Source: Eledone cirrhosa (taxonomy: Eukaryota). Taken from it: a stretch of 64,000 nucleotides of DNA. Each line of letters starts with the position of its first letter. Within the stretch, counting starts at the first letter, position 1. The stretch lies in contig OZ024740.1 of assembly GCA_964016885.1 (NCBI GenBank), forward strand, positions 47,802,001-47,866,000, in the 5' to 3' direction. The position numbers and the translations under genes were made by a program. The notes beneath the pieces were generated by a model. The model had not been told where the DNA came from. It worked only from the letters and a program-made list of their open reading frames with translations, and did not search any database. Positions 3,026-54,009 of this stretch are shown piece by piece.

Positions 3026-3039
3026 AAAATATATATATA

Positions 3040-3436: not shown

Positions 3437-3474
<38 letters not shown>

Positions 3475-3477
<3 letters not shown>

Positions 3478-13559: not shown

Positions 13560-13770
13560 CATATCTGGAGTAGGGACTATGGATAATTTCCAGAAATCCC
13601 TTGCTTGGCAGTGCTACCAAGGGGCACTGCCGGTTCGAGATAAACTCTACAGGCACGGAAGTGCTGTCAGATGGGCCTGGCCGAGATGTACACAGAGTAA
13701 CGAAAGCATTCTGCATGCACTCGTCCAGTGTGCGTTCATTACTGACTTGTGGAGTTATATTGATTATACC
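13560..13770 (+). pseudogene. L1/Tx1-clade C-terminal zinc-binding (zf-RVT-like) fragment
   Basis: LAWQCYQGALPVRDKLYRHG...PRC...ESILHALVQC...LW. Confidence 0.7.
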
Positions 13771-13819
13771 ACGACTATTATTGCGACCCAGCACTCATAG
13801 TCTATGTAGCTCCAGATGG

Positions 13820-14810: not shown

Positions 14811-14924
14811 GTATATTTACTCTACTAAACTGTTGAGTGCTTTATATCAGTTATAAACATTTTTAAGCTTGTTGAATCCCAAAAAATGAAATATAACCTC
14901 TGCATATATATATATATATATATA

Positions 14925-30224: not shown

Positions 30225-31479
30225 AACCTGATGAAGAATTGTGAGGTGGTGTCGTAATTTTTTCAAACCTTTCTAGACTGCTAATGTTGATATTTTTAAT
30301 ATTCTATTTGAACATCTGCATGGGCAGAAAATGTGGGAGGGGGAAGAATAGCTAATGATTGGAATTTAGTGCATGTTTTGAAAGATTAGATACACTGGGA
30401 AGGTCTGGGAAGAAAAATAGACATGGACAGACGATTGGCTTCAGTAGAAGTAGTATGCAACTTACTATTGCATAGAAGCAGAAGTGCTTATAGTAGCAGT
30501 AGAAGAGATAAAGAGAATAAACAACATGTCAGTAGAATAGTGGTCATATTGATAAGGAAATATTTGTAAATTCACAAAATAATATTTTTTATACACTCTG
30601 GAATGTTTGGGAGTGTAACTGCAGAGTCCAAGATAAATGCATTTTAGTTTTATTCAGGAACAAAAATTAAATTAACTAGCAAATAGTTTTATCGCCCAAC
30701 ATGGCTGAATACAAAAAAATGTAAATCTGAGTTTTTCGAATATTAATAATAATATTCGATTCGTTTGCAATTATGCAAACAGCCTCTTAAGTCATGTCAG
30801 TAGAATGACTCTGACATTCTTGCTCTTGTGTTGGCATATAAACAGAACGGCAAACACTAATGTTTCTGAGTTATTGCCCTTCATCAGTACAGTATACTGT
30901 TTACCTGCCAACTGTCAGAGCTAGTGAAATATATTTTCTGGAATATGAATTAAATTATTTGTTTAAATACATACAATGTACATTACATGAAGTAATACTC
31001 AGAACAAAAACTAACATCTATATAATGTGTTTAGATGGTTAATTTGTTGTTGTTTAACTCTAGGCTAGTTAACAGACATACGATCAAAAGTGTCTAGGAT
31101 TACATTAACCATTAAGTTACCCCACTTTTTTTTAAAGACACCCGGGTGTGATTTAAGGAAAACTTAGCTGTTAGTTACAGCAGGACAATAAACCGTGTAG
31201 AGGCTTTTTCGTTAGTTCGTGTTTAGTTTAGAAGTACCACGGGAGTTACCTCCCTTCGTCAATAAAAAAACTATAGTCATAACTACATATAGTTCAAAAC
31301 TACTAAACATTGCAATATATCAATCAATACAGGAATTTTCCATGGGAGTTTAGTTCTTGTTGTTATATCGCTGTCCGCTTTTTACATTTTATCTTGCCGT
31401 GAAATTTATCGACTGGTGTTGCTTTCGGACAATGCCGACGATAAATTCCTATAAATATCTAAAGGTCATAATTATTTTA

Positions 31480-31832
31480 TTCATAGTTGTATAAAAAAAA
31501 CATAATAATATACTGCTTACTGAACGAAAATACAAACGAATATTATATATACAAAGGGAAGGGAAGGGAAAAAAGAGAAAGTAAACACACAAGCAGGTAA
31601 TACACACATCTAGGGCCACGTACAACAAAGGGCAAGCGAAAGGGGTGGACAAATGAGCCGCTACCAGAGTAAAAGATAACAGTATTGCGAGGAACACTAG
31701 GAAACCTTTCTAATAATTTTTTAGGCAAGCCAGCACGCTCGCAGCGTTACCTTGGGTGATGGCGAGGCTGATACACTGAAACAACCAAGCACTCTCACGA
31801 GCATCACCAGTTACCTCTGTTAGGCGAGCCAT
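31480..31832 (-). mobile_element. CRE-clade 3' fragment
   Basis: ARLTEVTGDARESAWLFQCISLAITQGNAASVLACL followed by a pyrimidine-rich 3' UTR. Confidence 0.7.
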
Positions 31833-32186
31833 ATTGATAAATTCTTTTTTGTTTTCAATATTTGCATGAACATTCTTAATAGTGTCTTCATTATATTCCT
31901 TCTCGTAAATTTTACCTTTAAAAAACATTTATGACGGGCGCGGCTCATTATGTTTTTATTTCGTGAGCGCACTTTCTTTTATCGAATTTATTTGAATTTA
32001 TTAAAATTACATGTGAGATAACTGTAAAGTTTTTTTTTAATATTATAAATCTAATATCGGTAAATCCTGGTACAATAAACATGCACTGAATAAAGAAGTC
32101 AATTCTGTTTTGAGATGTTAAGATGTTAGTAGCAACGAAGCCTCGAAATAAACATCTATGTATGTATGTATGTATGTATGTATGTA

Positions 32187-32815
32187 CTGGTTTTATAATT
32201 TCACAAAGTTTTCTCAATAGAGAGAGAGTCGGTTTCTAACATAGACACAAGACTCTCTCATTGGAATTTACACAACATCAACTAGGTAGATATGTATGTA
32301 TGTCTGCATGCAAGCATGTGTAGATATGGATGTTATTGTATGTGTGGATGTGTATGTTTTGAGTTGTATGTGTGCATGTGTATATGCTTTGTATCTGTAC
32401 ATGTGTATATGCAGCTATTAGATGCAAAATTTTTGGAATGTTTTACATAATTTTACTGTTCCATTAATTGATTGTACTTGTAATTTCCTAACTAGTTGTG
32501 TTCTTTCTGTTCCTGTGAAGCCTAGCTTCTCAAGATTTGTATTGGGGCAGTTACTAACATATCCCAGTGCCCCAATAATCACAGGCATAAATCTGAATGT
32601 GTAATCAGGGTGGAGTATCTGCAGATTTCTCATCAGTTCTGCATAAATATTCTCCTTTTCACTAATCTTTGATATTATATTGGCATCTGCTGGGCAGCTA
32701 ATTTCCACTACTGTGCATGTTTTCTTCTCCCTGTCCCATATCATAATATCTGGTCTGTTATGCCTGCATTTTATTGGGGTTTTTACTGGAACATTCCACC
32801 AGTACTCTTTCATAT

Positions 32816-32817
<2 letters not shown>
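32187..32817 (-). mobile_element. R4/Dong-like REL retroelement 3' end (D1)
   Basis: HNRPDIMIWD..CTVVEISCP...K..EK...Y..L...PVIIGALG; (TATG)n on both sides. Confidence 0.88.
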
Positions 32818-32849
<32 letters not shown>

Positions 32850-32879
32850 TGTATGTATGTATGTATGTATGTATGTATG

Positions 32880-33483
32880 GTCACCAGTTGGTGCTACTGG
32901 TAACATGTATTCCAGTACAACCTGTCCCATGGTCGGGTCGTTGGCGACTAAACTGGCAACCCCACCAAGGTTTCTTGGTGAGGAGGGTGATTTGGGACAT
33001 CCTGCAGGACTAAAAACAAAACCTCTCAAAGGGCAAAAGAGCTCTTAAGAGTCAATGGCCATCCAAAATCACCAGGAGAGATGACCCCTTAGCCTTTGTC
33101 AAGGCAGAATTCTAGGAGAAGGAAAACTCTGATATAACACCTGCAACCCTGATGGTATCCAATGATGTTGACTTGTTCTTCTTTTTGGTAAATATCATCT
33201 TAGTTAACAGAGTGGGACTGGCTTTGTGCAGTGCCTTTGCTCACTATAAAAGCTTCACGGCACAGGCATTGCTTTATATCTGGAGATCTCTCTGCACTTG
33301 TCGTCACATGGTACCATGGGCCCAGCACTATGTGTCAATAATTGTCACAAGTGCAGTGTTTGTACCAGAGTTTTCAAGTCGCTGGCTGGACTAAAAAGTC
33401 ACACTCGTTCTGTGTATCGGTAGGGGTTCTCCTACATGGATATAAAGTAGTGGCCGTACTCGAAAACGAGTTGGCAGCCACCA
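32880..33483 (+). mobile_element. Bipartite non-autonomous RTE derivative (N1), (TATG)n tail
   Basis: Last ~185 bp matches the 3' end of the RTE at 52918-53079; 5' part resembles an RTE 5' UTR (CTAGGAGAAGGAAAACTCTGA); four copies in the window. Confidence 0.82.
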
Positions 33484-33509
33484 TGTATGTATGTATGTAT
33501 GTATGTATG

Positions 33510-34308
33510 TTCTGGTTTTATAATTTCACAAAGTTTTACCAATAGAGAGAGAGTCGGTTTCTAACACAGACACAAGGCTCTCTCATTGGAATTTACGCAA
33601 TATCAACTAGGTAGATATGTATGTATGCATGCATGTGTAGATATGGATGTTAATGTATGTGTGGATGTGTATGTTTTGAGTTGTATGTGTGCATGTGTAT
33701 ATGCTTTGTATCTGTACATGTGTATATGCAGTTATTAGATGCAAAATTTTGTAATGTTTTACATATTTTTACTGTTCCATTAATGGATTGTACTTGTAGT
33801 TTCCTAACTAGTTGTGTTCTTTCTCTTCCTGTGAAGCCTAGCTTCTCAAGATTTGTATTGAGGCAGTTACTAACATATCCCAGTGCCCCAATAATCACAG
33901 GCATAAATCTGAAGGTATAATCAGGATGGAGTATCTGCAGATTTCTCATCAGTCCTGCATAAATATTCTCCTTTTCACTAATCTTTGATATTATATTGGC
34001 ATCTGTTGGGCAGCTAATTTCCACTACTGTGCATGTTTTCTTCTCCCTGTCCCATATCATAATATCCTGGTCTGTTATGCCTGCATTTTATTGGGGTTTT
34101 TACTGGAACATTCCACCAGTACGCTTTCATATTATGTACATGGATGTCTTCCACATTGTTGTAGCTTTTAATGTGTTTATTATCGGGGCTATCTTTTTTA
34201 CGAACTGCATTGTACAGTGTTTTGGCCACTATATCATGCCTCATAGGTAGATAGTACCGCGATGACATCTTTGGACAGCTGCAGATGACATGGGTGATAT
34301 CCTCGATA
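33510..34308 (-). mobile_element. R4/Dong-like 3' end (D2)
   Basis: EDITHVICSCP...RHD, REL motifs, shared 3' UTR; TATG on both flanks. Confidence 0.88.
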
Positions 34309-34404
34309 TGTATGTATGTATGTATGTATGTATGATGGAAGGTTCTCCAGAAACTTGGTTGCCCTGATAAGTTCCTTGCTATAGTTAGGTCTTTCCATGA
34401 CGAC

Positions 34405-35832
34405 ATGAAGGCTTGGGTTAATGTCGGAGGTAACATGTCGGAGCCTATCTCAGTAAAAAATGGAGTGAAACAGGGGGATATTCCAGCACCGACCCTGTTT
34501 GCCATATACTTTGCAATGGTTTTCTGTATTGCATTCAGGAATTGCGAGCATGGTGTTTACATCCGATATCGAACCTCAGGCAGCATATTTAACATCAGGC
34601 GCTTTGCTGCAAAGACAAAAGTATTTACATCAATCATAAGAGACCTCTTGAATGCAGATGATTGCGATCTTGTAGCGCACACAGAGAGTGATATGCAGCA
34701 CATTTTGAATGCATTTTCTGATGCTTGCACTGCCCTAGGATTGACTGTCAGTCTCAAGAAAACCGTCGTCATGTACCAACCTGCCCCTGGTAAGCAGTAC
34801 ACTGAACCAAATATCTATGTGTGTGGTAAACGACTTGGAGTGGTTGATCAGTTTGTCTACCTGGGAAGCACTGTCAATCGATACAGCAACCTTGACAGTG
34901 AAATCTCACTTAGGATTAGGAAAGCAAGTGATGCTTTCGGAAAGCTAGAAAGGCGACTCTGGGGTCGGCGAGACATATGCAGGAGGACAAAGGTAAAGGT
35001 GTACAGGGCATGTGTGCTCTCTTGTCTTCTTTATGCCTGCGAGATCTGGGTCACATATCGACACCACCTTAAACAATTGGAGTGTTTCCATCAGATGTGT
35101 CTCAGACGGATCCATGGCGTTCACTGGAGGGATCACATCAGTGATGTCGAGATTTTGGAAAGCTCTATGTGTGACAGTATAGAAGCTCTTGTGCTTAAGC
35201 AACGACTCCGTTCGAGTGGTCACCTTGCCAGGATGAAGGATTCTAGAATACCAAAACAACTCTTTTATGGAGAGTTGGTTAAAGGAAAACGACCGCCACA
35301 TAAACCAAAAAAGAGGTATAAGGATTCCTTGAAAGCCTCTTTGAAAGACGCTAACATCTCTGCTGATACATGGGAGAATATTGCTGCTGATCGTAATAAA
35401 TGGAGAAAGACTGTATATGAGGGAAAAGTTGCCTTTGAGGCATCTCGAATCGCATACGAGAAAGTAAAGCGGGATGTGAGGAAGGGCATTGCTGTTGCAC
35501 TTCCAGACGGCGAGGGTCCTCCTATGGTGCTGACATGCAGCGTTTGTGCGAGACTCTGCCTAAGCAAAGCTGGACTCGAAAGTCATCTTCGCAGTCATAA
35601 AGTAAGACCAGTGGTTGACTAACAGGCTGCTGTTGGAGATGCTACTCATCATGCTTGCCAAACATGTGGTAGAGAATGTAAATCAGCAGGAGGGCTCAAG
35701 CGACATGCAAAAGTACACGAACTCCAGTCACAGCCGACTATTCCCAGTGAATGTTTTGGTTGCCGACTCTGTGCAAGACATTTTAGATCATTGGCTGGGC
35801 TAAAAAGCCACATTCGATCGCAGAGCTGTTAG
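34405..35832 (+). pseudogene. RTE RT C-terminal half plus three C2H2 zinc fingers
   Basis: GVKQGDIPAPTLF, LLNADD, FVYLGS, RIPKQLFYGEL; CSVC..HLRSH, then after a frameshift CQTC..HAKVH and CRLC..SHIRS. Confidence 0.88.
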
Positions 35833-36007
35833 TTGCTATCGTGTGTGTGTGTGTGTGTAGATATGCTTATGTGTGTGCGTGCGTGTGTATATATATATGT
35901 ATATGTATATTATTATTGTTGTTGTCATTATTATTATTGTTGTTATGATTATTATTATTATTATTGATATTAATGTATGTGTGTGTGTATATGTGTGTGT
36001 ATATGTG

Positions 36008-36038
<31 letters not shown>

Positions 36039-36092
36039 TTTTATTTTTATTTTCTTTTTATTTATTTATTATTATTATTATATATATATATA

Positions 36093-38233
36093 TCATCATC
36101 ATCATCATCATCAACGTTTAACGTCCGTGTTCCACGCTTGCATGGGTTTGGATGGGGGTAGTCCCACTTGAGGCAAGAGTGATTGTCTTGCTCGCATAGG
36201 ACTGTCTGGCAGATTTTCTACAGTTGGATGCCCTTCCTAACACCAACCACATTTACAGTGTGGGTCTGGGAGGTTTTTACCGTGTTGCCTACACGGCCAC
36301 ATTACAGCGTGGACTGTGTGTTTTTTTGTCGTGACACCTACACGATCTCATTTGTTTCGGCCTGGATGGTGTGGCACCAACACAACTTTACATAGAACGG
36401 GGTGGTGTGGATGGGTGGGGGTGGTGGGACGGGGGGGGGGGGGGGTATTTTGTTAGAGATGCCTACTGGCTGTAGTAGGTTTTACTATGTATTTAGGTAA
36501 GGCGGGTCTTCTCTGTTACTAAGTACCGCCAAAGGTCTCGGTCCAGTGACATTGTCTTGGAGAGGTGTAAGTGTGTGAGGTCGGAGTTTATCAGCTCGTC
36601 CCAGGTTTTTCTAGGTCTGCCTATTCCGTGGCTACCGTCTATCTTTATTGCCCTGCACTTTGTTATACAGCTATCGACTTTCATGCGCATCACGTGTCCA
36701 TACCAACGTAGCCTTCTCTCGAGTAAACAACATCTGATCCCTCTTATTTCTAATTTTTTCCTTAGTTCGTTTATGCTTTGCCGTTCACGTATATTACTGT
36801 TACACATCCAGCGGAGCATGCAAGCTTCGTTCCTCTCTAGTCTGCGTATATCCTCTGCACACAATGCCCAGGTCTCACTGCCATGCAACATTGCTGTTCG
36901 TATGCAGACATCGTACAACCTGCCTTTCATTTTTAGGGAGAACCCTTTAGCAGCTAATAGTGGTATAAGCTCTCTGAACTTTTTCCAACCAGTTCTGACT
37001 CTAGCTACTGTACTTTCAGAGCACCCTCCCCCACTGCTGATTTTATCACCCAGGTAACAGAAACTGTCCACTATTTCTATAGAACCCTCTGCGCAATTGA
37101 AAGAGCTAGTATTTTGTGGGCACTTGCTGCTACTTATTGCACCAGAGCACCGGCCACATGTAAAATCTATGTTCTTAGTTAGCTTACCTGTGATCCCACT
37201 ACATCTTTTATGCACCCATACTTTGCATTTAGGACATAAAATGGAGTTTCTACCTACGCCTTTCCTACACACCGAGCACGACCATTTCCCAGAAGGGACC
37301 GCCGCCTTATTTTCTTTCCTACAAACTAGAACTTTAGTCTTAGCCAGGTTAATTTTAAGGCCTTTTGATTCTAGGCCGTGCTTCCATGTTTGGAATTTCT
37401 TCTCTAGCTCGGCCATTGATTCCGCTATGAGTGTCAGGTCGTCTGCGTATAGGAGTTCCCATGGGCAGCCGGTCTTGAACTCCTCTGTTATAGCCTGAAG
37501 GGCAATAATAAATAGTAGGGGGCTGAGAACAGAGCCCTGATGGACGCCAACTTTTACGCTAAACTCTTCACTATATTCGTTGTTAATTCTAACCTTGCTG
37601 ACTGTTTCTTTATACATGGCTTGTATAGCTCTCACAAGCCATTTGTCAATGCCTAGTTTTCTAAGAGCCCACCAGATAATGGAGCGGGGGACTCTGTCGA
37701 AGGCTTTCTCCAAGTCGACAAAAGCTAGGTAGAGGGGTTTACCTTTAGCTAGGTACTTCTCCTGTAGTTGTCGTACAATGAAAAGAGCGTCTGTGGTACT
37801 TTTGCCTGACACAAACCCGAACTGCATTTCATCTAGATCAATTCTCTCTCTGATTAGTTGCGCTATTACTTTTTCCGTGACCTTCATGACCTGGTCGATT
37901 AATTTAATGCCTCTATAGTTACTCCTATCTAGGGCGTCTCCTTTACCCTTATAACAGTTAACGATGATGCTGCTATGCCAGTCCTTCGGAACAACCCCAT
38001 TCTGTACGACTTGGTTAACTATGCGGGTGACCATGATGTGTCCCACCGTGCCAGATGCCTTCAGCATCTCAGCAACTATTTCCGAAGGCCCAGCCGCCTT
38101 ACCCGTCTTCATATCCTTGATTGCCTTACTTATTATACTCCCCTCGACTAACACTGCTGGTCCCTCTATTGGGTCGATATGGGGGAGACTGTCTTTCTCC
38201 CATTTATTCTCCTCATTTGGTAGCCTTTCATAG
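36093..38233 (-). mobile_element. RTE LINE, 5'-truncated, (GAT)n tail
   Basis: Open RT from about 38233 to 36493 (LLYADD, PHD-like insert); flanked by (TA)n; the ORF-track N-terminus is read-through from flanking repeats. Confidence 0.93.
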
Positions 38234-38357
38234 TATATATATATATATATATTTTTTTTCTTTCTCCTCGTGCAATGGCCATACTCGATAACGAGGGGGC
38301 AGCCATCATGTATGTATGTATGTATGTAAGTATGTATGCATGTATGCATGTATGCAT

Positions 38358-38625
38358 CAGTGGCTAAGGGTAACCTGGAAAGCAGGGCATGCAGTCTAAT
38401 CGCCATGGCGGAAGTGGGGCTGTGCAGCCTTACCCCCCCCCCCCCCCCCCAATTCCCTCTAAATGACCCTCCCGGTCAAAGCCGCATGTAGTGTTATCTA
38501 GTGTGTGTGTGTGTTATCTTTTTATGTGTCTACGATTTAGTAAGCAGCCAAAATTCTGCTTACTTCAACCGACGCATTTGATCAACTCAAGATTCTATAA
38601 TGCATGCAAGCACCCTTCGTCCCTG
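38358..38625. mobile_element. Putative hAT-like MITE inside TATG array
   Basis: CAGTGGCTAAGGGT vs reverse complement CAGGGACGAAGGGT (11/14); flanks GTATGCAT / GTGTGTAT (6/8). Confidence 0.5.
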
Positions 38626-38670
38626 GTGTGTATGTATGTATGTATGTATGTATGTATGTATGTATGTATG

Positions 38671-40655
38671 TTCTTCTGGTTTTATAATTTCTGAAATGTT
38701 TTACATATTTTTACTGTTCCATTAATGGATTGTACTTGTAATTTCCTAACTAGTTGTGTTCTTTCTGTTCCTGTGAAGCCTAGCTTCTCAAGATTTGTAC
38801 TGAGGCAGTTACTAACATACCCCAGTGCCCCAATAATCACAGGCATAAATCTGAAGGTGTAATCAGGGTGGAGTATCTGCAGATTTCTCATCAGTCCTGC
38901 ATAAATATTCTCCTTTTCACAAATCTTTGATATTATATTGGCATCTGCTGAGCAGCTAATTTCCACTACTGTGCATGCTTTCTTCTCCCTGTCCCATATC
39001 ATAATATCTGGTCTATCATGCCTGCATTTTATTGGGGTTTTTACTGGAACATTCCACCAGTACTCTTTCATATTATGTAAATCGATGTCTTCCACATTGC
39101 TGTAGCTTTTAATGTGTTTATTATCGGGGCTATTTTTTCTACGGATTGTATCGTACAGTGTTTTGGCCACTACGTCATGCCTCATAGGTAGATAGTACCG
39201 CGATGACATCTTTGGACAGCTGCTGATGACATGGGTGATATCCTCGATGTTAGTTCTGCCGAGTCTGCACTTGTTATCACATCTAGGTGTTTTGCCTGCA
39301 TCCTTATCTCTTTTGTGAATCAGGTATTTCGTGTTAATCTCCTGTTCTTAGATTGCAAAAGCGTATCCTTCAAAGTGGGAACCAATATAGCAGTTGTTGG
39401 TCCAAGATAGACTACTTTCCTTATCTATATTACTCTCACTCTGGAGCTTCCTGGCAACATATCCATGCATGATTTTTTGCTGATAGTCATGCAGTTTTTC
39501 ATCCATGGATTCACTGTGATACTGCTGAGCGACTTTCCTGGGTGTGAGTTTTTGATTATCACACAGGGAATATCTCTCGAGGAGTTCCTTCCCAACTCTC
39601 ATGATCTTATCTGTTTCATGCAGATAGACTTGCTTGAGAAACGGGCTCCTACGCTTCGAGGTTCGTAGATGTTGTCGGAGAGATATGATGTGACATTCAA
39701 ATGTTGTCTGGACTGATGTTAGGCCTCTGCCTCCCTGCTTACGTTTCAAGTAAAGGCGGTCTATGTCACTGTTGATGTGGAAGTTTCCGGTGTTCTTCAG
39801 TATTTTTTGAGTTCCAACATCAACTGCTCGGATTTCGTCTATCGTCCAATTGAGTATTCCAAACGTTGGTGTTAGGACAGGCACAGCAAACACATTGTGA
39901 GCCACTGTTTTGTTTTGCGCAGAGAGTTCCAATTACCAGATCTTTCTTAATCAGGTTTAGTATCTTTATTACAGATACCATTATAGGATATGTTCTCATC
40001 TAGCCCCAGGTATCTGTAGCAGTCCTCATCAGATATCGGTGAAACAGTTAGGCCATTGATGACAATGTTGCTAGATTGGGTTGTTGTTTTTCCCCACTTT
40101 ACAGTCATGTATGAGCATTTATCTTGGCCAAACTCCATTCCTATATCCTTTGAGAATGTTGTAACCAAGTCAAGATGAATAATATCACAGAGAGACTGTC
40201 CCCCTGAAATATACCCCTGCAATATTTTATTTTATCAGTGAAAATAGAGTCCTCCCTCTCTGTCTTTAACCTTAGGATAGTAGCCCAAGAAGAAGACAGC
40301 ATCTCTATGGCTCTGACAATAATGTCTGGGACTTTAGAAAGTTGGAATGCCTCTATCATCCAAAAGTGGGGAACAGAATCGAAAGCTTTCCTGTAGTCGA
40401 GCCAGACTGTAGCCATATTCCTCCTAAGTTGTCGCACCTCCGACATCGCAGTTCTGTTGATTAGGAGTTGTTCAGCACATCCCGAAACTCCTTTCTTTCC
40501 AGCTGCTTGTTCATCTTTGATGATGTTATTATTTTCACAGTGATCTTAGAGGAATAGGTTCAAGCAGGCTGTATATATCTTATACATCAGGTTCTGGCAT
40601 GCAATGGGTCGGTAGTCTTTTGCCAAGTGGGTGTCTTTGTTCTTGGGGACCAGTA

Positions 40656-40657
<2 letters not shown>
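38671..40657 (-). mobile_element. R4/Dong-like element with RT, CCHC and REL domains (D3), decayed
   Basis: DYRPIACQN..YK, EQLLIN, WLDYRKAFDSVPH, GIFQGDSLS, GMEFGQDKC, YRYLG, GGRGL, C.LC..H..SSC, RHD, RPDI, VEIS; catalytic YxDD region and most of the 3' UTR are deleted. Confidence 0.9.
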
Positions 40658-40686
<29 letters not shown>

Positions 40687-40721
40687 TGTATGTATGTATG
40701 TATGTATGTATGTATGTATAT

Positions 40722-41079
40722 AACTCTGATATAACACCTGCAACCCTGATGGTATCCAATGATGTTGACTTGTTCTTCTTTTTGGTAAATATCATCTTGG
40801 TTAAGAGAGTGGGACTGGCTTTGTGCAGTGCCTTTGCTTACTATAAAAGCTTCACGGAACAGGCATTGCTTTATATCTGGAGATCACTCTGCACTTGTCG
40901 TCACATGGTACCATCGGCCCAGCACTAAGTGTCAATAATTGTCACAAGTGTAGTGTTTGTACCAGAGTTTTCAAGTCTCTGGCTGAACTAAAAAGTCACA
41001 CTCGTTCAGCGCATCGGTAGAGGTTCTCCTACATGGATATAAAGTAGTGGCCGTACTCGAAGACGAGTTGGCAGCCACC
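40722..41079 (+). mobile_element. 5'-truncated bipartite RTE derivative (N2)
   Basis: Matches 33125-33483; TATG on both flanks. Confidence 0.85.
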
Positions 41080-41437
41080 ATGTATGTATGTATGTATGTA
41101 TGTATGTATGTATGTATGTATGTATGTATGTATGCATGCATGTTCTTCTGGTTTTATAATTTCACAAATCTTTGCCAATAGAGAGAAAGTCGGTTTCTAA
41201 CATAGACACAATACTCTCTCATTGAAATTTACACAACATCAACTAGGTAGATATGTATGTATGTCTGCATGCATGCATGCATGTGTAAGTATGGATGTTA
41301 TTATATGTGTGCATGTGTATGTTTTGAGTTGTATGTGTGCATATGCATACGCTTTGTGTCTGTATATGTGTATATGAAGTTATTAGATGCAACATTTTTG
41401 GAATGTTTTACATAATTTTACTGTTCCATTAATGGCT

Positions 41438-44400: not shown

Positions 44401-44827
44401 GTCGTAGCCGTCACAATGTTGTCCAACGTGACCGTTTAGGTCGCCTGCAATAATTATATAGTCACTGTCGGTTATTTGGGAGGTAGTGAGCATCAGTGTC
44501 TCATAGAATCTGTCTTTTATAGTGCTGGGCAGTCCGGATTGGGGTGCGTACGCGGATATTACTGTCACCGTAGTTCTATTGAGGACAAGTCTTATTTTAA
44601 TTATTCTGTCGTTCACTCTATTTACGTCTATTATCTTATCTGCCCACTTTTCTGCTACCATGATTCCTACTCCACCCAGCCCATTGTCGTTTCCCACCCA
44701 GAAAAGCTTATAGCATCGTTTTCTACCCACAATGTATCTAGCAGATCCACCCCTCCACCTGGTCTCTTGACTACAACAAACATCGACCTCCTTACGTTCA
44801 AGCATTTCTACAACCTCGTTAGAGCGA
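41438..44827 (-). mobile_element. Near-complete RTE LINE (APE + RT), (GAT)n tail
   Basis: APE motifs QETRW, SAYAPQ, GDLNGHVG, VDYIL, SQHRLI; RT motifs intact. Confidence 0.95.
41830..44805 (-). pseudogene. RTE ORF (APE-RT) with a single in-frame stop at about 44002
   Basis: ORFs 44002-44805 and 41830-43872 share a frame; DSEEE*LETYKV corresponds to EEQIETF in the sister copy at 3.0 kb. Confidence 0.88.
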
Positions 44828-45136
44828 CTAATTTCCTAACTAGTTGTGTTCTTTCTGTTCCTGTGAAGGCCAGCTTCTCAAGATTTGTATTGAGGCAGTT
44901 ACTAACATATCCCAGTGCCCCAATAATCACAGGCATAAATCTGAAGGTGTAATCAGGGTGGAGTATCTGCAGATTTCTCATTAGTTTTGCATAAATATTC
45001 TCCTTTTCGCTAATCTTTGATATTATATTGGCATCTGCTGGGCAGCTAACTTCCACTACTGTGCATGCCTTCTTTTCCCTGTCCCATATCATTATATCTG
45101 GTCTGTTATGTATGTATGTATGTATGTATGTATGTA

Positions 45137-45838
45137 TTGGTGCTACTGGTAACATGTATCCCAGTACAACCTGTCTCATGGTCGGGTCGTTGGCGACTAA
45201 ACTGGCAACCCCACCAAGGTTTCTTGGTGAGGAGGGTGACTTTGGACATCCTGCAGGACTAAAAACAAAACCTGTCAAAGGGCAAAGGAGCTCTTAAGAG
45301 TCAATGGCCATCCAAAATCACTGGGAGAGATCATACATGGGGACATTTGTAATCTGGGGGACAAAGAGGTTTTCATCTGTTCAGTCGGCCAGAGCCTGCT
45401 CCAGGTTTAGGGCCACGTCAGGATCTGCCGTCTTGCTAAGGACCTCGCCTTTGTCAAGGCAAAATTCTAGGAGAAGGAAAACTCTGATATAACACCTGCA
45501 ACCCTGATGGTATCCAATGATGTTGACTTGTTCTTCTTTTTGGTAAATATCATCTTGGTTAAGAGAGTGGGACTGGCTTTGTGCAGTGCCTTTGCTCACT
45601 ATAAAAGCTTCACGGCACAGGCATTGCTTTATATCTGGAGATCTCTCTGCACTTGTCGTCACATGGTACCATGGGCCCCCCACTATGTGTCAATAATTGT
45701 CACAAGTGTAGTGTTTGTACCAGAGTTTTCAAGTCGCTGGCTGGACTAAAAAGTCACACTCGTTCAGCGCATCGGTAGGGGTTCTCCTACATGGATATAA
45801 AGTAGTGGCCGTACTCGAAAACGAGTTGGAAGCCACCA
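45137..45838 (+). mobile_element. Bipartite RTE derivative (N3) with ~115 bp foreign insert
   Basis: Matches N1 except 45331-45447, which is the reverse complement of about 47722-47832. Confidence 0.85.
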
Positions 45839-45865
45839 TGTATGTATGTATGTATGTATGTATGA

Positions 45866-45972
45866 TAATAATAATTGTTTCTACTTTTGGCACAAGGCCA
45901 ACAATTATCCCAGTGCATTACTGGTACTTTATTTTATCGACCCCGTAAGGATGAAAGGTAAAGTTAACCTCG
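45866..45972 (-). mobile_element. 5'-truncated tRNA/Nin-type SINE
   Basis: 3' half of the family, abutting the (ATT)n tail of the CR1 element. Confidence 0.85.
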
Positions 45973-46580
45973 ATAATAATAATAATGAAATTATTGTGTA
46001 CAGTGCTCAGGTGCACTACATCTCATCAAGGTGTATGTATAGTACATAGAATAATATACATATGTCAGGGAAGTGAATAGTGTATGAGTCATGAAATACA
46101 TGTCTATGTATGGAGGGTGAATATTTGGTGTAGTGTTGGCGAATCTCAGGAAGCATGGAGGTTTTAAATGATGCAGTGTCTCGACAGCTAATAACTGATG
46201 CAGGGAGTTTGTTCCATGCTTCAGCAACTCTGAGCGTGAAAAAATGTTTCCGAAAAGCATGGGAGCCGTGCTGTTTTCTGACTTTGTGGGCATGCCCACG
46301 TGTTAGACACATGGAAATCAAAAAGGTGCTCAGGATTGTTGTTGGCAAGATGGTTAATAATTTTGTGGGACGTTGGAGCTTCAATGTATCCATGCCCAGG
46401 GAAGTAAGGCGTTCAGAGTATGGTAGATGCCTGATGGAGGGTATTCGCTTGATTGCACGTCTCTGAACAGTTTCTAGGTGGTTAATGTTCTGAGCAAGAT
46501 ATGGATTCCAGACTGGTGATGCAAATTCTAAGTGTGGCCGCACCATAGCTACATACAGCTTTAAATAGATAGCTGATGTA
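45973..46580 (-). mobile_element. CR1-clade LINE 3' end
   Basis: LYVAMVRPHLEFASPVWNPY...LETVQRRA.K....Y.ERL..LG...RGH..K...FFTLRV...WN.LP; (ATT)n tail. Confidence 0.9.
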
Positions 46581-46959
46581 TGCATACGTAAGAAAAAGTC
46601 TGGGAACTCCGCATTGTTTTCATTATATAGTGAAAGAAGAATATAGAATGAGATGGGACTTTTTCTATCCACATTAAAAAAATAGAAGGGGAACTATAAA
46701 ATATTGATTATTGATTTGATAGAGTATAATTTCTAACCATCTTTATACAATGACAAATTCTGCATGTTTACTAATATCAAATTATATTTTACAGAAAATT
46801 CATTTGGATAATTCGGTCAACGACCATCCAGTATTGGCCCAGGCCATATCTAACTTAATAGCACCACCATACAATAGAATTTTTAAAGAGAGCGTGATTG
46901 TTATATTTGATGCACGTGGGGATGACATGAGTGTGTCAGGGTAAAATAGTGGGAGGTGG

Positions 46960-47065
46960 TAAGCGTCCGTGGTGTCAAGGAAAAGATTATCGCCCAAATT
47001 TATCAGCTAGAAAGAATATATTCTTTGAGAACAGCAAATTGAAATTGGAAGAAATATATAAAATG
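46960..47065 (+). pseudogene. Possible Merlin/IS1595-like transposase fragment
   Basis: LSARKNIFFENSKLKLEEI resembles the S.R..T.FE.S.L motif; short and unconfirmed. Confidence 0.3.
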
Positions 47066-48860
47066 TCAGGTTCGACCCTGCGGAGTGAGTTGGGGGGTCA
47101 ACAGTGTCACTCGTGCGCCGCGCGCAACAAAGGTAGGAACTGCTCCAACTGTAACAGTTTCTTCTACATTTCTTGCGTCAAACTCACTCGGCGCGCTTCG
47201 GAATCACTACATCGGTGACACTGCCCGCGATGCCTATCCCCCTCAATGCCATAGGTAGACACAGGTGTCCGGCTCATCGGAGATCTGAACCTGCTTAACC
47301 CGGACGAGGCCTTGGTAGTGATCGCCCGCCTCAGGCAGTTGTCGAGAGACATCACCAGGATTCCAAAAGCTGCCCGCACTCTTGCAGCCGAAGCGCCAGC
47401 GTCGTCTATTGATCGAGCACTTGACTCGTGCGGCCCGCAAGACTGGACTAAGCTGTTCACTTTCGCGACCCTCACACCCGAGATCCCGATGGCAGAGAAC
47501 CCAACGTCGGAGGAGGGATCGGGCCCCTCACGCAAATATCACCTCGGTGAACTCGACTCCACGATCTGTCGCTGTGCAGAACTCATCTGCAATATTAATT
47601 TCGACAGCACCGGCTGGCAACAGGTGAAGCTCTCAGTGAGGTTCGATGGCCTAGGCCTCCGATCCACTTCGGATCTGGCACTGCCGCCCTACCTCTCCTC
47701 AACCTTCTCCAGCCACACTCAGCGAGGTCCTTAGCAAGACGGCAGATCCTGACGTGGCCCTAAACCTGGAGCAGGCTCTGGCCGACTGAACAGATGAAAG
47801 CCTCTTTGTCCCCCAGATTACAAATGTCCCACATAACTGGGACGACATCAGGTGCAGGTCTTCCTTCAGGTGGATCGAGTCTGGCATGGACCAACACTAC
47901 CTCGCCTAACACCGATCTGCTTCGCAGCCAAACAGCGCTGCGTGGCTCAATTCGGTGCCCTCCTCATCAACCGGTACTCTTCTTAATGATGAGTGCACTC
48001 GCATCGGAGTGACGCAACACATCGGCCTCCGCGTATGTGCGCCACACACATGTCGTTGTGGGGCTGTCGTTGACGAGTTTGGCCTGGCCTCACTGTCATG
48101 CCACCAGAGCGCAGCACGGTTCCCTCGACATACCGTTCTCAACAACATATTGAGAAGGAACCTGCATGCAGCTGACTTCCCATCACAACTGAAGCCAGCA
48201 GGCCTTGACCGCAGAGAAGGCAAGCACACCGACAGTATTACCCTTTTCCCATTCGAAGGAGGTAAATCCTTCATTTGGGACTCGACATGCTGTGACGCGT
48301 TCTCCGCCTCCTACTTATTCGCTTCGACCACAAACCCCGGTACTGTAGCCTGCAATGCAGAGTACAGGAAGACACGCAAATACCGGAGCATGTCCGGTTG
48401 CTTTCTCGTTGCACCGGTCACCGCTGAGATCTCAGACGCCCTCGGATTCCAGACAGCCAAGCTCATCCTCAAAATCGGAGCATCAGCAACCCGTCTGAGG
48501 AAGGAGCCCCGCGAAATGTCGCTGTCCATTGTCCGTGGAAACGCCTTTGCAGTTTGTCCGCGGCGCGCAACCGAAACACCGCTCCTATCTAGACGCAGTC
48601 TGTCACCCTCTCCCCTTATCCCTCTCTTTCTTCTATTGCCTAATAGTCCTTGCTCTTCCCACCTTTTTCTTTTTATCTATGGCATTTATAGTCCTTTACT
48701 TTCATATACAGCCAGATCTGCTCTTCGTTACTTCTTCTCCTTTTTTCATTACTTAATTTTGTCTTTATCTTTTTTTAAAAATATTTCCATCATTGTGTAA
48801 CTTCAGTCTGTAAAATATAGTTGATATAATATATTTAGTATAACAGATAAAATAAAATTC
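47066..48860 (+). mobile_element. Internally deleted CRE-clade retroelement (PHD, partial RT, CCHC-like, REL)
   Basis: CHSC...CSNC..FY.SC...*HCPRC; RIPKAAR; FDGLGLRS; WLNSVPSSSTGTLL; C.CG..VD..G..LSC...RH..LN; WDSTCCD; AE.RK..KY; SIVRGNA. Confidence 0.85.
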
Positions 48861-50130
48861 CGTTTATATTTTATCTCCTTCATGGAAAAACAAATTACAT
48901 ATTATACATTAAATTGTACAATAAGAATACAGAAAGAATACAGGATTTAACTGAAGCAGCCAGGATGTGACATACGGTGCAGGACAGCAGCATTTATCGA
49001 AAACACTTCATTTAGAAGGGAATTTATACATACTTTGAGATTTGGAAGTTTGAGAACTTTTAAGCGACGTTGTAAATATATCGTGTTACATATTGTTTAT
49101 AGGACTAGTAAGAAATTATCAATAATTAATGAAGAACATCCTTTTGATTGTTAGGGTAATCTTTCGAAGTTTCCACTTTCAAACTTCCCCTTAAGAGTAG
49201 CGTAGCCAGAATGTGCGCCGCCAGGAATAGCTCTTCAATCTCCACTCCCCATATACAGCATATCGCACAATGACTCCTTCTTAAAGTGCTTTTCCTTATA
49301 GAATTCTCGCCCGGCGCAGACCACCCCTCACCGCTCTCCTCTAGATACTATCTCTTGAACTTCTAGAGTTTTTGTTAAATTCATGCAGTGATCCGCTGCT
49401 CCACTGGATCAATTTATCTGATGTTAGCAATCGTAGTAGTGTGCCTCTGTAACCACACTGACAGTGAACAAACTTTATGCAATGTGTCATACAATGGGCT
49501 TTAATGGCAAAATTCAGTAGAAACTGTTTCAAAGAAGAGTCTTTTCAATAAATTTTCATAATTTTTTCTGTCATTCCGTCATTACATTTTTAAAATGAAA
49601 ACACAGCAGTTCACTATTTTGTTATATTTTTTTAATTTGTTCCCAATGCGATAGTTACTCACATGGTGCCCAGACACGGTCTAATTAAAATGTACATTCT
49701 AACAATTCCGTTTAATATAGAGATGATCTACTGTAAACAGAAAACAATTTATCCACAAATGACTGAAAATTATTAATTCTACGATTCGCTTACTGCAAAT
49801 TCTAATCTGTGATTAAAACTGTGCCAAATTGTCATCATATGAGGGTATTGATACTGGGGCAATGTTGCAACACCAGGTTTGACACCAACTTTTACGCTCG
49901 CTCTGTCACTAACAAATGCTACAAGGTTCTATCCCAAGTAAGCATCATCAAACTTATCGTCGTAAAAAGCGAAGGGACCTACCTTTGCGTCTCCAGTCGT
50001 GTCCGGACTGAATCTCCCTGAGTGATGCTCAACTGTTTCGCGTCTGGCCAGAGAACATAGCAAAACTCACACACTCATACGCACCAGTCATTATAGGACG
50101 TCCACACTCTGCCTCTCCATATAGAGTCTA

Positions 50131-50451
50131 CAGAGGTATGCAACATATTCCATTGGCGGGCTACTTTTGAACATTGGAACAACTAGTAGGGCCATTAATA
50201 TTTATTAAACACTATTCCAAAGATTCACCACGACTTCTTTCCATAACATGGAACTGGGAAATTATAACACACATAACCCTATCAGTGAAGCCCTTTACTA
50301 TAGGTCAACTAACAGAAAATTGTATTACGGTTATGACAAAAATTCTAAATAAGCCTACACGGTAAAAGTTAAAAAAACGGTCATCGCGGGCCACTCTGAC
50401 TGGTCTGGCGGGCCGGATTGTGGCCAGCGGGCCGCCTGTTGCACGCCTCAG
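50131..50451. mobile_element. hAT (Charlie-like) MITE
   Basis: CAGAGGTATGCAACA vs reverse complement CTGAGGCGTGCAACA; GCGGGCC subterminal repeats. Confidence 0.6.
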
Positions 50452-50558
50452 AGAGAGACCCGTCCCGCACTTCCGATGTGATGTCACTGGCTCTTCACCA
50501 CCGGCAAGACATCCCCTGCACTTCCGACACCCTATCCCCACACTCCCCCGTGATCTCA

Positions 50559-51188
50559 ACTGTTCCATTAATGGATTGTACTTGTAATTTCCTAACTAGT
50601 TGTGTTCTTTCTGTTCCTGTGAAGCCTAGCTTCTCAAGATTTGTATTGAGGCAGCTACTAACATACCCCACCAAGGTTTCTTGGTGAGGAGGGTGACTTT
50701 GGACATCCTGCAGGACTAAAAACAAAACCTGTCAAAGGGCAAAAGAGCTCTTAAGAGTCAATGGCCATCCAAAATCACTGGAAGAGATGACCCTTAGCCT
50801 TTGTCAAGGCAGAATTCTAGGAGAAGGAAAACTCTGATATAACACCTGCAACCCTGATGATATCCAATGATGTTGACTTGTTCTTCTTTTTGGTAAATAT
50901 CATCTTCGTTAAGAGAGTGGGACTGGCTTTGTGCAGTGCCTTTGCTCACTATAAAAGCTTCACGGCACAGACATTGCTTTATAACTGGAGATCTCTCTGC
51001 ACTTGTCGTCACATGGTACCATAGGCCCAGCACTATGTGTCAATAATTGTCACAAGTGTAGTGTTTGTACCAGAGTTTTCAAGTCGCTGACTGGACTAAA
51101 AAGTCACACTCGTTCAGCGCATCGGTAGGGGTTCTCCTACATGGATATAAAGTAGTGGCCGTACTCGAAAACGAGTTGGCAGCCACCA
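50559..51188. mobile_element. R4/Dong fragment (-, 50559-50669) fused to bipartite RTE derivative N4 (+)
   Basis: Junction ACATACCCCA|CCAAGG; ACCCCA is shared by both parents. Confidence 0.85.
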
Positions 51189-51208
51189 TGTATGTATGTA
51201 TGTATGTT

Positions 51209-51458
51209 TGCATCCAATGATGTAGACCAATTCTTCTTTTTGGGTAAATGCGTTCGATGTTCAGAGAGTGGAATTGGCCTCTTCAAAGCCTTTCCTCACC
51301 TAAAAAAAGCCTCAAGCACAGGCATCGCTTGATATGTGACATCTTTTGCGATGTATGACATTGCTGGTCATAAGTGAGTCCCTAGCAGGACTAAAATCGT
51401 GATGCTCATGCTTAAGTATGAAGCGATGGTATTACTCGAAATCGAGTTGCAGCCACCA
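51209..51458 (+). mobile_element. Diverged second subfamily of bipartite RTE derivative
   Basis: Shares ATCCAATGATGT..GAGAGTGG..GCACAGGCAT and the terminus CTCGAAATCGAGTTGCAGCCACC-(TATG)n. Confidence 0.7.
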
Positions 51459-51483
51459 TGTATGTATGTATGTAGGTATGTAT

Positions 51484-52059
51484 GTTCTTCTGGTTTTATA
51501 ATTTCACAAAGTTTTCCCAATAGAGAGAGAGTCGGTTTCTAACATAGACACAAGACTCTCTCATTGGAATTTACACAACATCAACTAGGTAGATATGTAT
51601 GTATGTCTGCATGCATGCATGTGTAGATATGGATGTTATTGTATGTGTGGATGTGTATGTTTTGAGTTGTATGTGTTCATGTGTATATGCTTTGCATCTG
51701 TATATGTGTATATGCAGTTATTAGATGCAAAATGTTTGGAATGTTTTACATATTTTTACTGTTCCATTAATGGATTGTACTTGTAATTTCCTAACTAGTT
51801 GTGTTCTTTCTGTTCCTGTGAAGCCTAGCTTCTCAAGATTTGTATTGAGGCAGTTACTAACATACCCCAGTGCCCCAATAATCACAGGCATAAATCTGAA
51901 TGTGTAATGAGGGTGGAGTATCTGCAGATTTCTCATCAGTTCTGCATAAATATTCTCCTTTTCACTAATCTTTGATATTATATTGGCATCTGCTGGGCAG
52001 CTAATTTCCACTACTGTGCATGTTTTCTTCTCCCTGTCCCATATCATAATATCTGGTCT
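51484..52059 (-). mobile_element. R4/Dong-like 3' end (D5)
   Basis: RPDIMIWD...PVIIGALG and full 3' UTR; TATG on both flanks. Confidence 0.88.
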
Positions 52060-52148
52060 GTATGTATGTATGTATGTATGTATGTATGTATGTATGTATG
52101 TATGTATGTATGTATGTATGTATGTATGTATATATGTATGTATGTATG

Positions 52149-53079
52149 GGGAAATATCAAACAGGATACAGAAAGCCAGTGATGCTTTTGGAAAACTGAA
52201 CATGCGTCTCTGGTCTTAACACGGAATTTCGGTAAAGACAAAGCTTGTGAGACGTGTGTGGTCTACCGTAGACAGATGAAGCGACTTGAGAGGTTCCACC
52301 AGTACTACTTACGTCGGATCCTCGGCATAACTTGGCAAATGTTTGTCAGTGACGTCGAGGTTCTGGACAGAAGTGGTTGTGATAGTGTCGAGTCCTTGAT
52401 TTTGAAACATCAGCTGCGCTGGACAGGCCATCTTGTAAGGATGAATGACAAGCGAATGCCGAAGCAGCTGCTTTATGGCGAGCTCCAAATGGGAAAAAGG
52501 AACGCGAGCAAACCCAAGATGTGTTTTAAGGACTGCATCAAGGGGGAGCTCAAAAAAGGTAACATCCCTTGTGAGCACTGGGAAGCATGTGCTAGCGACC
52601 GATCGCAGTGGAGGAAAGCAGTGGCTAGTGGCAAGAGTCTATTTGAGGAAACAAGAAGAAGGCACGCAACACTAAAAAGAGATGTCCGGAAAGGAATCCA
52701 TGTTGGCCTTCCCGAAGGCACTGACAGACGGCCTGACCTGACATGTGAGACCTGTAATAGGGTTTGTCTGAGCATGGCAGGTCTAGAGAGTCACCTGAGA
52801 GTGAACAAGAACAGGGAAGCAGGCACCTGTGGAGCTATAAGTGTTCATCAGACGACGACATGTAATGTTTGTGGAATGGAAGGGTATGCAGGTCGAGTAG
52901 TGATCTCACACGACACCTTGTCGTCACGTGGTACCATGGGCCCAGCACTAGGTGTCAATAATTGTCACAAGTGTAGTGTTTGTACCAGAGTTTTCAAGTC
53001 GCTGGCTGGACTAAAAAGCCATACTCGTTCAGCGCATCGGTAGGGGTACTCCTACATGGATATAAAGTAGCCACCACCA
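52149..53079 (+). mobile_element. RTE (BovB-like) 3' end with C2H2 fingers (R2), parent family of N elements
   Basis: QLRWTGHLVRM...RMPKQLLYGEL; CETC..SHLR, CNVC.., CSVCTRVFKSLAGLKSHTRSAH; TATG on both flanks. Confidence 0.88.
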
Positions 53080-54009
53080 TGTATATATGTATGTATGTAT
53101 GCATTTATGTATGCATTTATGAATGCATATATGTATACATGTTTGTATGTATGTATGTATAGGAATACATAGAATGTGTTTCCGGTTTTTAAAATGAGCG
53201 CATTCCACTTGTGATTCCTGTCTTTTCTTGTATACAGGGAACTTAGAATTACTTTATTAAACATGTCATTTATGAAGACAACAGAGAATAATTTAAGAGA
53301 TATTGAGTAAAACAAAGTTCTATTTTTAATAGAATGCATACAAATAAACGCAATTTATATTTAAAAAAAAGAAAAAGTTGGAGAAGACACGCCTACTCAA
53401 TCACACACTACAAGGGGAAATGGAGTTTTCCTCTAATAATATTTGAGGCATGCCAACTCGCAACATTGCCATCGGTGATAGTAATGCGAAGGCACCACCT
53501 GATATTTTAATTTCTATTAGATCGAGTAACCATATAGACGTTCCTTCGAGTATTTGTTCTACCTTTTCTTTCTGAATTCTAATCACACCGAGGTCAACTT
53601 TGTCTTTCATCTTTCCAGTGTCGATAAAATAAAGTACCAGTTAAGTACTGAAGTTTATCGACTTTTCTCTTGTCCTAAATACTGGCCTTGAACCCAAATC
53701 GGATTAATTTTTATTAGTAAAAAGTCTTTGACTTCGTTTTGAATCCTGCTCTAGTTATTATTTCTTTTTACTGCCATCACCAAACACTCTTGAGAAAGAT
53801 AAACATGTTGCACTTCCCTTCCCCAGTCCTTAGTCTGCTTTTAAACTTAATTAAGATTTTTTTTTTAAATCGATGTTGCTTTCATTCAGATCAAACAAAA
53901 TCAGTTGTGGCCGACCAAGGAAATAATCCTGAATTATTAGTTGGATTATCTTCTGGTCTTCATAATTATCTTAAATGAATTAACTACCTTATGTTTATTG
54001 AACAATGGC

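Follow-up and report, generated by a model that had tools for sequence, protein, structure and literature searches.

The window analysed here is a stretch of 64,000 nucleotides from the octopus Eledone cirrhosa (assembly GCA_964016885.1, contig OZ024740.1, positions 47,802,001 to 47,866,000 of the forward strand) that carries, at 32158..53162, a cluster of retrotransposon pieces set on arrays of the tetranucleotide TATG. The pieces belong to two kinds of element without long terminal repeats (non-LTR): a Dong-like family with a restriction-like endonuclease (REL) that we call D, and an RTE-like lineage with C2H2 zinc fingers and an apurinic/apyrimidinic-type endonuclease (APE), represented by R2, its short derivative N, and the related R1 and N'. 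Comparison with genomic copies confirmed the piece order, strands, and bounds given in an initial annotation of this interval: judged against full-length copies, all 6 D pieces lie on the minus strand and all 7 C2H2-RTE pieces on the plus strand, a polarity that recurs genome-wide. Both families and the long TATG arrays are confined to the cluster within the window, as also claimed there, with all 20 perfect runs of at least three TATG units inside 32157-53157, no D or C2H2-RTE match found elsewhere in the window, and no run of at least three CATA units on its plus strand. The D pieces begin at different positions of the D reference (3465, 3296, 1724, 3524, 3720, and 3528). Near-universal TATG bounds on one microsatellite were a further part of that annotation and hold for most pieces, though not for all: the cluster is interrupted by 4.7 kb of unrelated DNA and is therefore not one unbroken microsatellite, 2 minus-strand copies of an APE family with a PHD domain sit inside it without TATG bounds (one interrupting the 3' untranslated region (UTR) of R1 and the other D4), and the fragment Dfrag lacks an array on its left side and is joined straight to N4 via a short common motif, likely through deletion of an array that formerly lay between them.

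Full-length copies of D measure about 4.0-4.3 kb; one of them (L076; L numbers denote individual loci) encodes 671 + 551 amino acids in one frame with a single stop, and the Dong-like reverse transcriptase (RT) matches RVT_1 at E 9e-25. A second Dong-like family, D', shares 45% amino-acid identity with D and is absent from the window. It was found at L079:3038-7001 (minus) and at further loci (L201-L249 and L362-L380; 1,394 search candidates), is 4,025 bp long with copies 98.5-99.9% alike, retains an unbroken stop-to-stop open reading frame (ORF) of 1,174 amino acids in 5 of 21 translated loci, and is likely still active. Additional Dong-like copies 64-72% alike to D lie beside CATA arrays at L066:8-838 (on the D strand), L020, and L009, and some of these at least are D'. 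An alignment of 59 rows keeps the motifs of RT and REL together with a CCHC knuckle, with C985, C988, H997, and C1002, R1014 and H1015, P1064 and D1065, and K1096 conserved in at least 90% of rows. No APE domain was matched in a domain search, and the predicted structure of the Dong-like protein (predicted local confidence, pLDDT, of 87) is best matched (E 6e-34) by the R2 proteins of the REL literature, which are not to be confused with our R2. Its N-terminus is predicted to form a three-helix domain (pLDDT 82) whose top structural matches are mostly Myb/trihelix DNA-binding domains (Zeste with Z 6.1, root-mean-square deviation 2.5, and 64 aligned; TRF1 with Z 5.6), all of them below the noise level of Z 8, and Pfam gave no Myb or C2H2 match there. 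The three-helix result fits the Myb-like N-terminal domain described for R4/Dong proteins (PMC7998251; here and below, citations refer to parts of the papers).

The closest named homologue of the Dong-like protein comes from Argonauta hians (67% identity), while homologues from the TAA branch and from insects show 32-35% identity at E 1e-110 or better and R2 proteins reach only E 1e-29. In a midpoint-rooted RT tree of 52 rows, none of them a named R4, Dong, or Rex6 reference, D, D', the Argonauta proteins, and an element ending on CTTA form one branch with an SH-aLRT of 100 that includes none of the 14 TAA-labelled rows, and the tree joins this branch to one of TAA-flanked elements and uncharacterised insect proteins. 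Among 80 loci of metagenome relatives, the flanks of 29, picked for their length and for reaching the end of the ORF, were inspected within 160 nt of the ORF, and these ended on (TAA)n in 14 cases, on (AT)n and (CTTA)n in 1 case each, and on CATA in none. The CTTA case (L284) falls in the D/D' branch and ends on (CTTA)11 at the end of its contig, which is possibly another tetranucleotide target. The contig end of a distant relative (L312) presumably resembles the 3' end of 18S rRNA and would then reflect either an insertion into ribosomal DNA or a chimera.

The sites occupied by D and D' are sharply defined. An 18-mer from the D 3' end has 6,347 exact matches in the genome, and none of these (0/6,347) is followed by TATGTATG within 8 nt. 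In a position-ordered sample from 40 regions in the first 35 Mb of one contig (the end at L117, which lacked an anchor, was dropped), and with at least 2 CATA units in 40 nt of flank scored as positive, 51 of the 52 D copies had CATA in the 3' flank and 37 of 52 had it in the 5' flank, and TATG occurred at 0 of 52 on either side. The best-hit set of D', which like all our best-hit sets excludes the window copies and the query locus, had CATA at 39/39 3' flanks and 37/39 5' flanks. The junction AAGAA|CATA is precise to the base in 38 of 54 cases, and the CATA flanks of D are often degenerate or compound. Since CATA flanks D on both sides, it is a target rather than a tail. Two pattern hits were obtained for the 3-unit CATA stretch within D's own 3' UTR, and neither is a clean insertion; we rejected both as known empty-site insertions because one is a local tandem duplication and the other lacks the upstream host part. 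Bare 3-unit CATA thus appears essentially unused, and a longer run would seem to be needed. Together with the single ORF and the REL motifs, these flanks bear out the initial view of D as a REL element of the Dong type whose insertions are specific to CATA/TATG arrays. We file D and D' as a Dong-like lineage, not as Dong proper, because their target is (CATA)n instead of the (TAA)n targeted by Dong elements (PMC3812793); (CATA)n would be a new target repeat for a Dong-type element.

On the RTE side, the full-length R2 element measures 4.07 kb and consists of a 5' UTR of about 430 bp and one frame with APE (residues 60-289), RT, and three C2H2 fingers, without an ORF1, a layout common to many homologues. 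N has 607 bp; its positions 1-422 align with one end of full-length R2 and 420-599 with the other, at 90-96%, which makes N a bipartite, non-autonomous internal-deletion derivative of R2. Such derivatives, in which the 5' and 3' ends are kept, are a known product of RTE elements as in Bov-A, RTESINE, and WALLSI3 (PMC5786205). R1 and N' are members of sister families of R2 and N. Exact matches to the RTE 3' end motif number 28,817 across the genome, and most copies are the 607-bp derivative (50 of 51 sampled 3' ends were scored as N). We apply the RTE label on the basis of anatomy, of the published RTE clade with its single APE-RT ORF and, in Octopus vulgaris, a C-terminal C2H2 region (PMC9115989), and of motif likeness, with no named RTE among the 120 listed homologues. 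A second non-autonomous family, Nb (L003:867-1481), combines a 5' part 88% like N with an R1-type 3' end and has the same array polarity. The 5' ends of truncated N copies pile up at about 193-209 (e.g., L161, L193, L250, L260, L262, L264, L270, L273, and L275), and N3 is broken at 207-217; this position may represent an additional start, a point of cleavage, or a hot spot of microhomology.

The 28,817 RTE 3' ends continue with ATGTATGT in 9,136 cases and with ATATATAT in 8,681, compared to only 9 with ATACATAC. Among 51 position-ordered copies, 49 3' flanks start with AT, with 8 being pure ATGT over three units, 11 pure (AT)6, and 27 mixed; alternating purines and pyrimidines make up the 5' flank in 38/51 and the 3' flank in 43/51, and the type of the 3' flank (TA-, TG-, or TATG-type) mirrors that of the 5' flank. 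Target duplications were sought in these 51 and a further 32 best-hit ends as non-periodic stretches of at least 9 bp that start at the first base past the element, and 21 of 83 ends had one, compared to 3.3 +/- 1.7 (maximum 10) in 1,000 shuffled pairings, with a mode of 12 bp and a preceding T in 20 of the 21. Because the duplication starts directly past the last base of the element, the RTE flank is duplicated target and not a written tail. The family thus is a TA/TATG-targeting element with a T^AT site, target duplications of about 12 bp, and no tail, and we call it an RTE-like variant because the short-repeat 3' tail that is typical of RTEs, albeit not obligatory, was not found.

The fixed opposite orientations seen in the window therefore hold at thousands of sites (0/6,347 for D; 9,136 versus 9 for the RTE), and the two families also lie close together: in 0-19.3 Mb of one contig, 13 of the 27 D ends lie no more than 5 kb from an RTE end, compared to 1.2 under a shift null. 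Such pairs of D and RTE are antiparallel in 16/16 cases at 5 kb and 19/20 at 10 kb. Across the arrays of 53 D copies, the neighbour was on the predicted strand in all 50 cases (37/37 RTE antiparallel, 13/13 Dong parallel). Alternation of the two families as a rule is not supported, and neither is the mutual dependence that the initial annotation had suggested. Most RTE copies are alone, and RTE-RTE and D-D neighbours are common elsewhere; of 102 RTE junction sides, 75 have no neighbour of either family and 2 lie at a locus edge, while 21 of the 25 neighbours are RTE and 4 Dong. Neighbour identity roughly tracks abundance, so that alternation is no rule, and its strict form in the window is a local accident.

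Two unrelated non-LTR lineages inhabit the same CATA/TATG repeats in fixed opposite orientations throughout this genome, and we consider it probable that each nicks a different strand of the pre-existing repeat and that repeated independent insertions built the nest. In target-primed reverse transcription (TPRT), the nicked strand is the complement of the element's sense strand. The D/D' protein would accordingly bind a long, CATA-rich upstream run, probably via its predicted Myb-like N-terminal domain, and its REL nuclease would nick the TATG strand, where reverse transcription would be primed. The APE nuclease of the RTE would nick a T-A step, with priming that requires a DNA end in ...AT, to which an RNA with a terminal AU could pair. 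A nick at T-A would give such an ...AT end on the CATA strand and in (TA)n, but would leave the TATG strand with ...GT at its end, and the confinement of ...AT ends to the former two would thus account for both the 1000:1 polarity of the RTE and its equal use of (TA)n. Each insertion would split an array and leave usable repeat on both sides, so that sites could be re-used and nests could grow without tail-writing or mutual dependence. The initial annotation had the RTE re-targeting TATG and the REL element targeting the (CATA)n strand; the shared array and the opposite strands stand, whereas under TPRT logic the nick strands would be reversed (TATG for D, CATA for the RTE).

Several observations weigh against this reading or limit its reach. 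The nick strands are assigned from the general TPRT model, and the position-ordered D and RTE samples were both drawn from the first 35 Mb of one contig. Of the 52 D 5' flanks, 15 lack CATA, at least several of them in visibly interrupted copies, and target duplications of D were informative in 2 of 52 cases in an uncontrolled count. The N-terminal domain had no Foldseek match at E<0.001, and its best Myb-like match is weak (Z 6.1 against a noise level of 8). RTE flanks contain 142 G versus 31 C in 20 nt, a bias that the T^AT rule does not fully explain, and a repeat of one or two units on the RTE RNA, serving for pairing alone, is conceivable. Among the 21 RTE-RTE neighbours, 19 are parallel and 2 antiparallel. 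The 13 pieces of the window form 12 runs (p 0.008 under random order, in a test chosen after the fact), the 4 window N copies are compatible with a single clade (p-AU 0.54, approximately unbiased test), and an excess of pure CATA at the 5' junctions of Dong-like copies is only partly explained.

This excess might reflect an additional activity, which we put forward with considerable reservation: the Dong-type element could write pure (CATA)n at its 5' junction, by slippage or template jumping while its cDNA is joined upstream, and thereby enlarge the common target. Pure CATA runs at D' have a median of 14 units on the 5' side versus 3 on the 3' side (5' longer in 32 and shorter in 3 of 39; Wilcoxon p 1e-6), and the asymmetry recurs in position-ordered D copies (p 0.018) but is not significant in the D best-hit set (p 0.16). 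Two single loci fit the proposal: at L365, a 3'-flank stretch of about 32 bp recurs upstream with 2 mismatches and 14 pure units lie between this recurrence and the element, and in the L247 minisatellite, whose sister units carry 3.5 units, the element has 18 units at its 5' and 3.5 at its 3' junction. A systematic search for such displaced duplications was not significant, however (for D', 2 among 12 eligible compared to 0.43 +/- 0.64 under the null; for D, 1 among 36 compared to 0.81). Of 1,992 long pure arrays, the first 30 point both ways, since 20 adjoin a family element, 8 of them at a D or D' 5' end, and 10 are free of any family element at similar lengths (13-22 units). A long upstream footprint combined with a short duplication would yield an equal asymmetry, and bare 3-unit sites are unused. 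In its full form, which we likewise hold to be possible but doubtful, a young Dong-like REL element that has switched to (CATA)n would add its own 5' CATA in a telomerase-like manner and so make landing pads for a tail-less RTE on the other strand; if true, this would be a self-expanding target common to two unrelated retrotransposon groups and a source of the genome's long tetranucleotide arrays.

In the model of the initial annotation, the RTE produces (TATG)n tails and returns to them as targets while the Dong-like element lives on these tails, hence the alternation; this model now looks very unlikely. The 9,136 ends continuing with ATGTATGT would suit it, but against it stand the 8,681 ends with ATATATAT, a pure ATGT flank in only 8 of 51 copies, 3' flanks of the same type as the 5' flanks, and duplications that start at the last base of the element. 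RTE elements whose repeat tails seed microsatellites have been published (PMC2887409), and RTE 3' ends lie beyond the D 3' array in 25 of 53 cases compared to RTE 5' ends beyond the D 5' array in 12 of 37, yet 21 of the 53 arrays at D 3' ends lack a neighbour of any family, and pure runs of at least 10 units are no commoner at RTE 3' ends (8/83) than at 5' ends (11/83). Tail-less RTE copies in non-TATG contexts (L042, L165, and L186) largely refute tail-writing. Median pairwise distances are 0.054 for D, 0.040 for N, and 0.000 for D' (whose copies were best-hit selected), so that D is older than N and D' younger, and bursts of Dong-type elements both preceded and followed N. An origin by duplicating one D-N unit, in tandem or segmentally, or by mis-assembly at the arrays strikes us as very unlikely even though local duplications exist at other loci (identical pairs in L123 and L005/L006), the window N copies may form a clade, read contigs over 31000-50900 are short and swamped by other copies, and no read record spans the cluster. 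As the initial annotation had argued from differing 5' ends, simple tandem duplication does not fit: a tree of D copies (19 of 89 were too short and dropped) rejects a single clade for the 5 window copies (p-AU 0.023), the window N copies differ by 2.5-4% and are each closer to some copy elsewhere, three RTE families are mixed in the cluster, and the same polarity is found at thousands of dispersed sites. Random insertion followed by survival or accumulation in microsatellite-rich DNA, without any enzymatic targeting, we regard as highly improbable; it has been argued that Waldo-A/B of Drosophila accumulate passively near CA repeats (PMC3812793), but such an origin is incompatible here with the precise AAGAA|CATA junctions, the uniform flanks of 39/39 young D' copies, and the counts of 0/6,347 and 9 versus 9,136, and is refuted by this strand bias.

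The arrangement of both lineages in opposite orientations on one repeat has relatives among known systems. Dong elements (Bombyx mori Dong, DongAg, snail DongBg, and ostracod Dong1/2) have, like D and D', a single ORF with RT, CCHC, and REL as well as a microsatellite target (PMC3812793, PMC7998251) and are described with a Myb-like N-terminus without zinc fingers (PMC7998251), of which the counterpart in D/D' is predicted only, with a weak match. They differ in their (TAA)n target, with D and D' placed in the separate, strongly supported branch that includes the (CTTA)n-ended L284. Bombyx Dong also has a 5' HDV-like ribozyme (PMC3774820), whereas at D and D' Rfam gave no hit except microsatellite-driven miRNA matches and our own descriptor, unvalidated on known ribozymes, was also empty. 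TRAS and SART of Bombyx mori are likewise two target-specific families in opposite orientations on one repeat, (TTAGG)n (PMC7265360); both are APE elements and telomeric, while here a REL element and an APE element from distant groups occupy the same microsatellite, dispersed over thousands of sites. In its fixed opposite orientations, the D/RTE arrangement works like TRAS/SART without being a member of that system. The targets of Waldo (ACAY) and Mino (AC) come close as ACAY includes ACAT, which is the same repeat as CATA/TATG (PMC3812793), but these are insect R1-clade APE elements, and neither of our single-ORF lineages is R1-like in anatomy. For RTE elements, a link of the 3' end to the first base of the target duplication has been described and RNA-target pairing proposed (PMC6007223), similar to our reading, while RTEs in the literature end in a repeat tail of their own and give rise to microsatellites (PMC2887409), in contrast to the present tail-less elements within existing TA/TATG runs at strict polarity. 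For Octopus vulgaris, Dong-R4 has been listed as an abundant family with recent activity (1,129 insertions with a mean of about 4.2 kb; PMC13282606), and octopus Dong-R4 and C2H2-bearing RTE elements have been catalogued without a target site in the parts cited (PMC13282606, PMC8967140, PMC9115989, PMC10294476). The literature searched, which did not extend to Repbase, to supplements, or to papers by Kojima and Fujiwara under subscription, contained no CATA-specific Dong and no tail-less microsatellite-targeting RTE. Since there are precedents for nested target-specific elements on opposite strands of one repeat, our finding extends a known pattern.

Table 1. Features of the TATG-associated retrotransposon cluster in window coordinates.
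Feature	Position	Strand	Remark
(TATG)7 array at D1 3' end; left edge of cluster	32157..32184	+	
D1, 5'-truncated Dong-like (REL endonuclease end and 3' UTR)	32185..32821	-	96.9% to full-length D, 3465-4101
(TATG)15 array separating the 5' ends of D1 and N1	32820..32879	+	
N1, near full-length non-autonomous RTE derivative (5' ~430 bp and 3' ~180 bp of the 4.07-kb R2-family element)	32880..33482	+	
(TATG)6 array, N1 and D2 tail to tail	33483..33509	+	
D2, 5'-truncated Dong-like (CCHC knuckle, REL, 3' UTR)	33510..34307	-	95.4%, positions 3296-4103
(TATG)7 array	34307..34334	+	
R1, 5'-truncated C2H2-RTE of sister family (RT end and C2H2 fingers)	34336..35835	+	61% amino-acid identity to R2
PHD-bearing RT element in R1 3' UTR microsatellite; (GAT)n end; not TATG-bound	36093..38234	-	
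R1 3' terminus, pushed away by the PHD-element insertion	38256..38308	+	in L061 the same end lies ~25 bp past R1
Degenerate TATG array past R1	38308..38354	+	
(TATG)10 array at D3 3' end	38629..38670	+	
D3, longest Dong-like piece (RT to REL), frameshifted, two internal deletions	38671..40656	-	
(TATG)15 array	40657..40719	+	
N2, 5'-truncated non-autonomous RTE derivative	40722..41079	+	positions 250-607, 96.9%
(TATG)13-16 array	41080..41143	+	
D4, 3' part	41143..41438	-	positions 3813-4106
APE-RT-PHD element inside D4; (GAT)n end	41438..44828	-	29% identity to R2 RT
D4, 5' part	44829..45110	-	positions 3524-3805
(TATG)7 array	45107..45137	+	
N3, non-autonomous RTE derivative with 109-bp inverted insert copied from 47722-47830	45137..45837	+	
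(TATG)6 array; left sub-cluster ends	45838..45864	+	
4.7-kb spacer with unrelated repeats plus low-copy DNA; free of D, C2H2-RTE, and TATG runs	45865..50558	.	
Dfrag, internal D piece without array on either side	50559..50670	-	positions 3720-3831
N4, fused to Dfrag via short common motif	50665..51187	+	positions 84-607
(TATG)4 array	51188..51206	+	
N', 3' part of related non-autonomous RTE family	51207..51458	+	74% to N
Short TATG array	51458..51484	+	
D5, 5'-truncated Dong-like	51485..52061	-	positions 3528-4106, 97.2%
(TATG)17+4 array	52059..52148	+	
R2, 5'-truncated copy of N's autonomous partner (RT end and three C2H2 fingers)	52146..53081	+	
Degenerate TATG array; right edge of cluster	53082..53160	+	

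Other repeats of the window were noted in passing. The APE-RT-PHD family with its (GAT)n ends is present at 817-3030, 18937-19596, 36093-38234, and 41438-44828, always on the minus strand and in two subfamilies 76% alike, and a tandem array with a 48-bp period derived from its 3' UTR occupies L068:4475-7001, with the 48-bp unit also at 18438-18590 and 41592-41688 of the window. The 109-bp insert of N3 (45340-45448) is an inverted, 99% identical copy of part of an element at 47255-48800 that lies 2.3 kb away, and looks like a templated repair insertion. The source element has broken ORFs without a Pfam hit, which we take to resemble the C-terminal nuclease region of the CRE clade. Likewise without a Pfam hit are ORF fragments at 14829-15440 and 57880-59351 that presumably resemble Penelope-like elements. 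A 729-bp inverted repeat (10367-11077 and 13763-14491, 96.7% identical) encloses a repeat with a period of 15/30 bp and copies of about 190 bp that resemble short interspersed elements, and it may be a DNA transposon.

The results assign target sites to the two groups of long interspersed nuclear elements that prevail in octopus genomes and for which activity in the octopus brain has been proposed. The switch from TAA to a tetranucleotide, CATA here and CTTA in a relative, is a natural series for asking which domain sets the specificity of REL elements, and near-identical, intact Dong-like copies are on hand for this question. An RTE-like family that targets microsatellites strand-specifically and without a tail reverses the usual view of RTEs as seeding the repeats adjacent to them. 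At such sites, insertion callers and microsatellite markers will fail.

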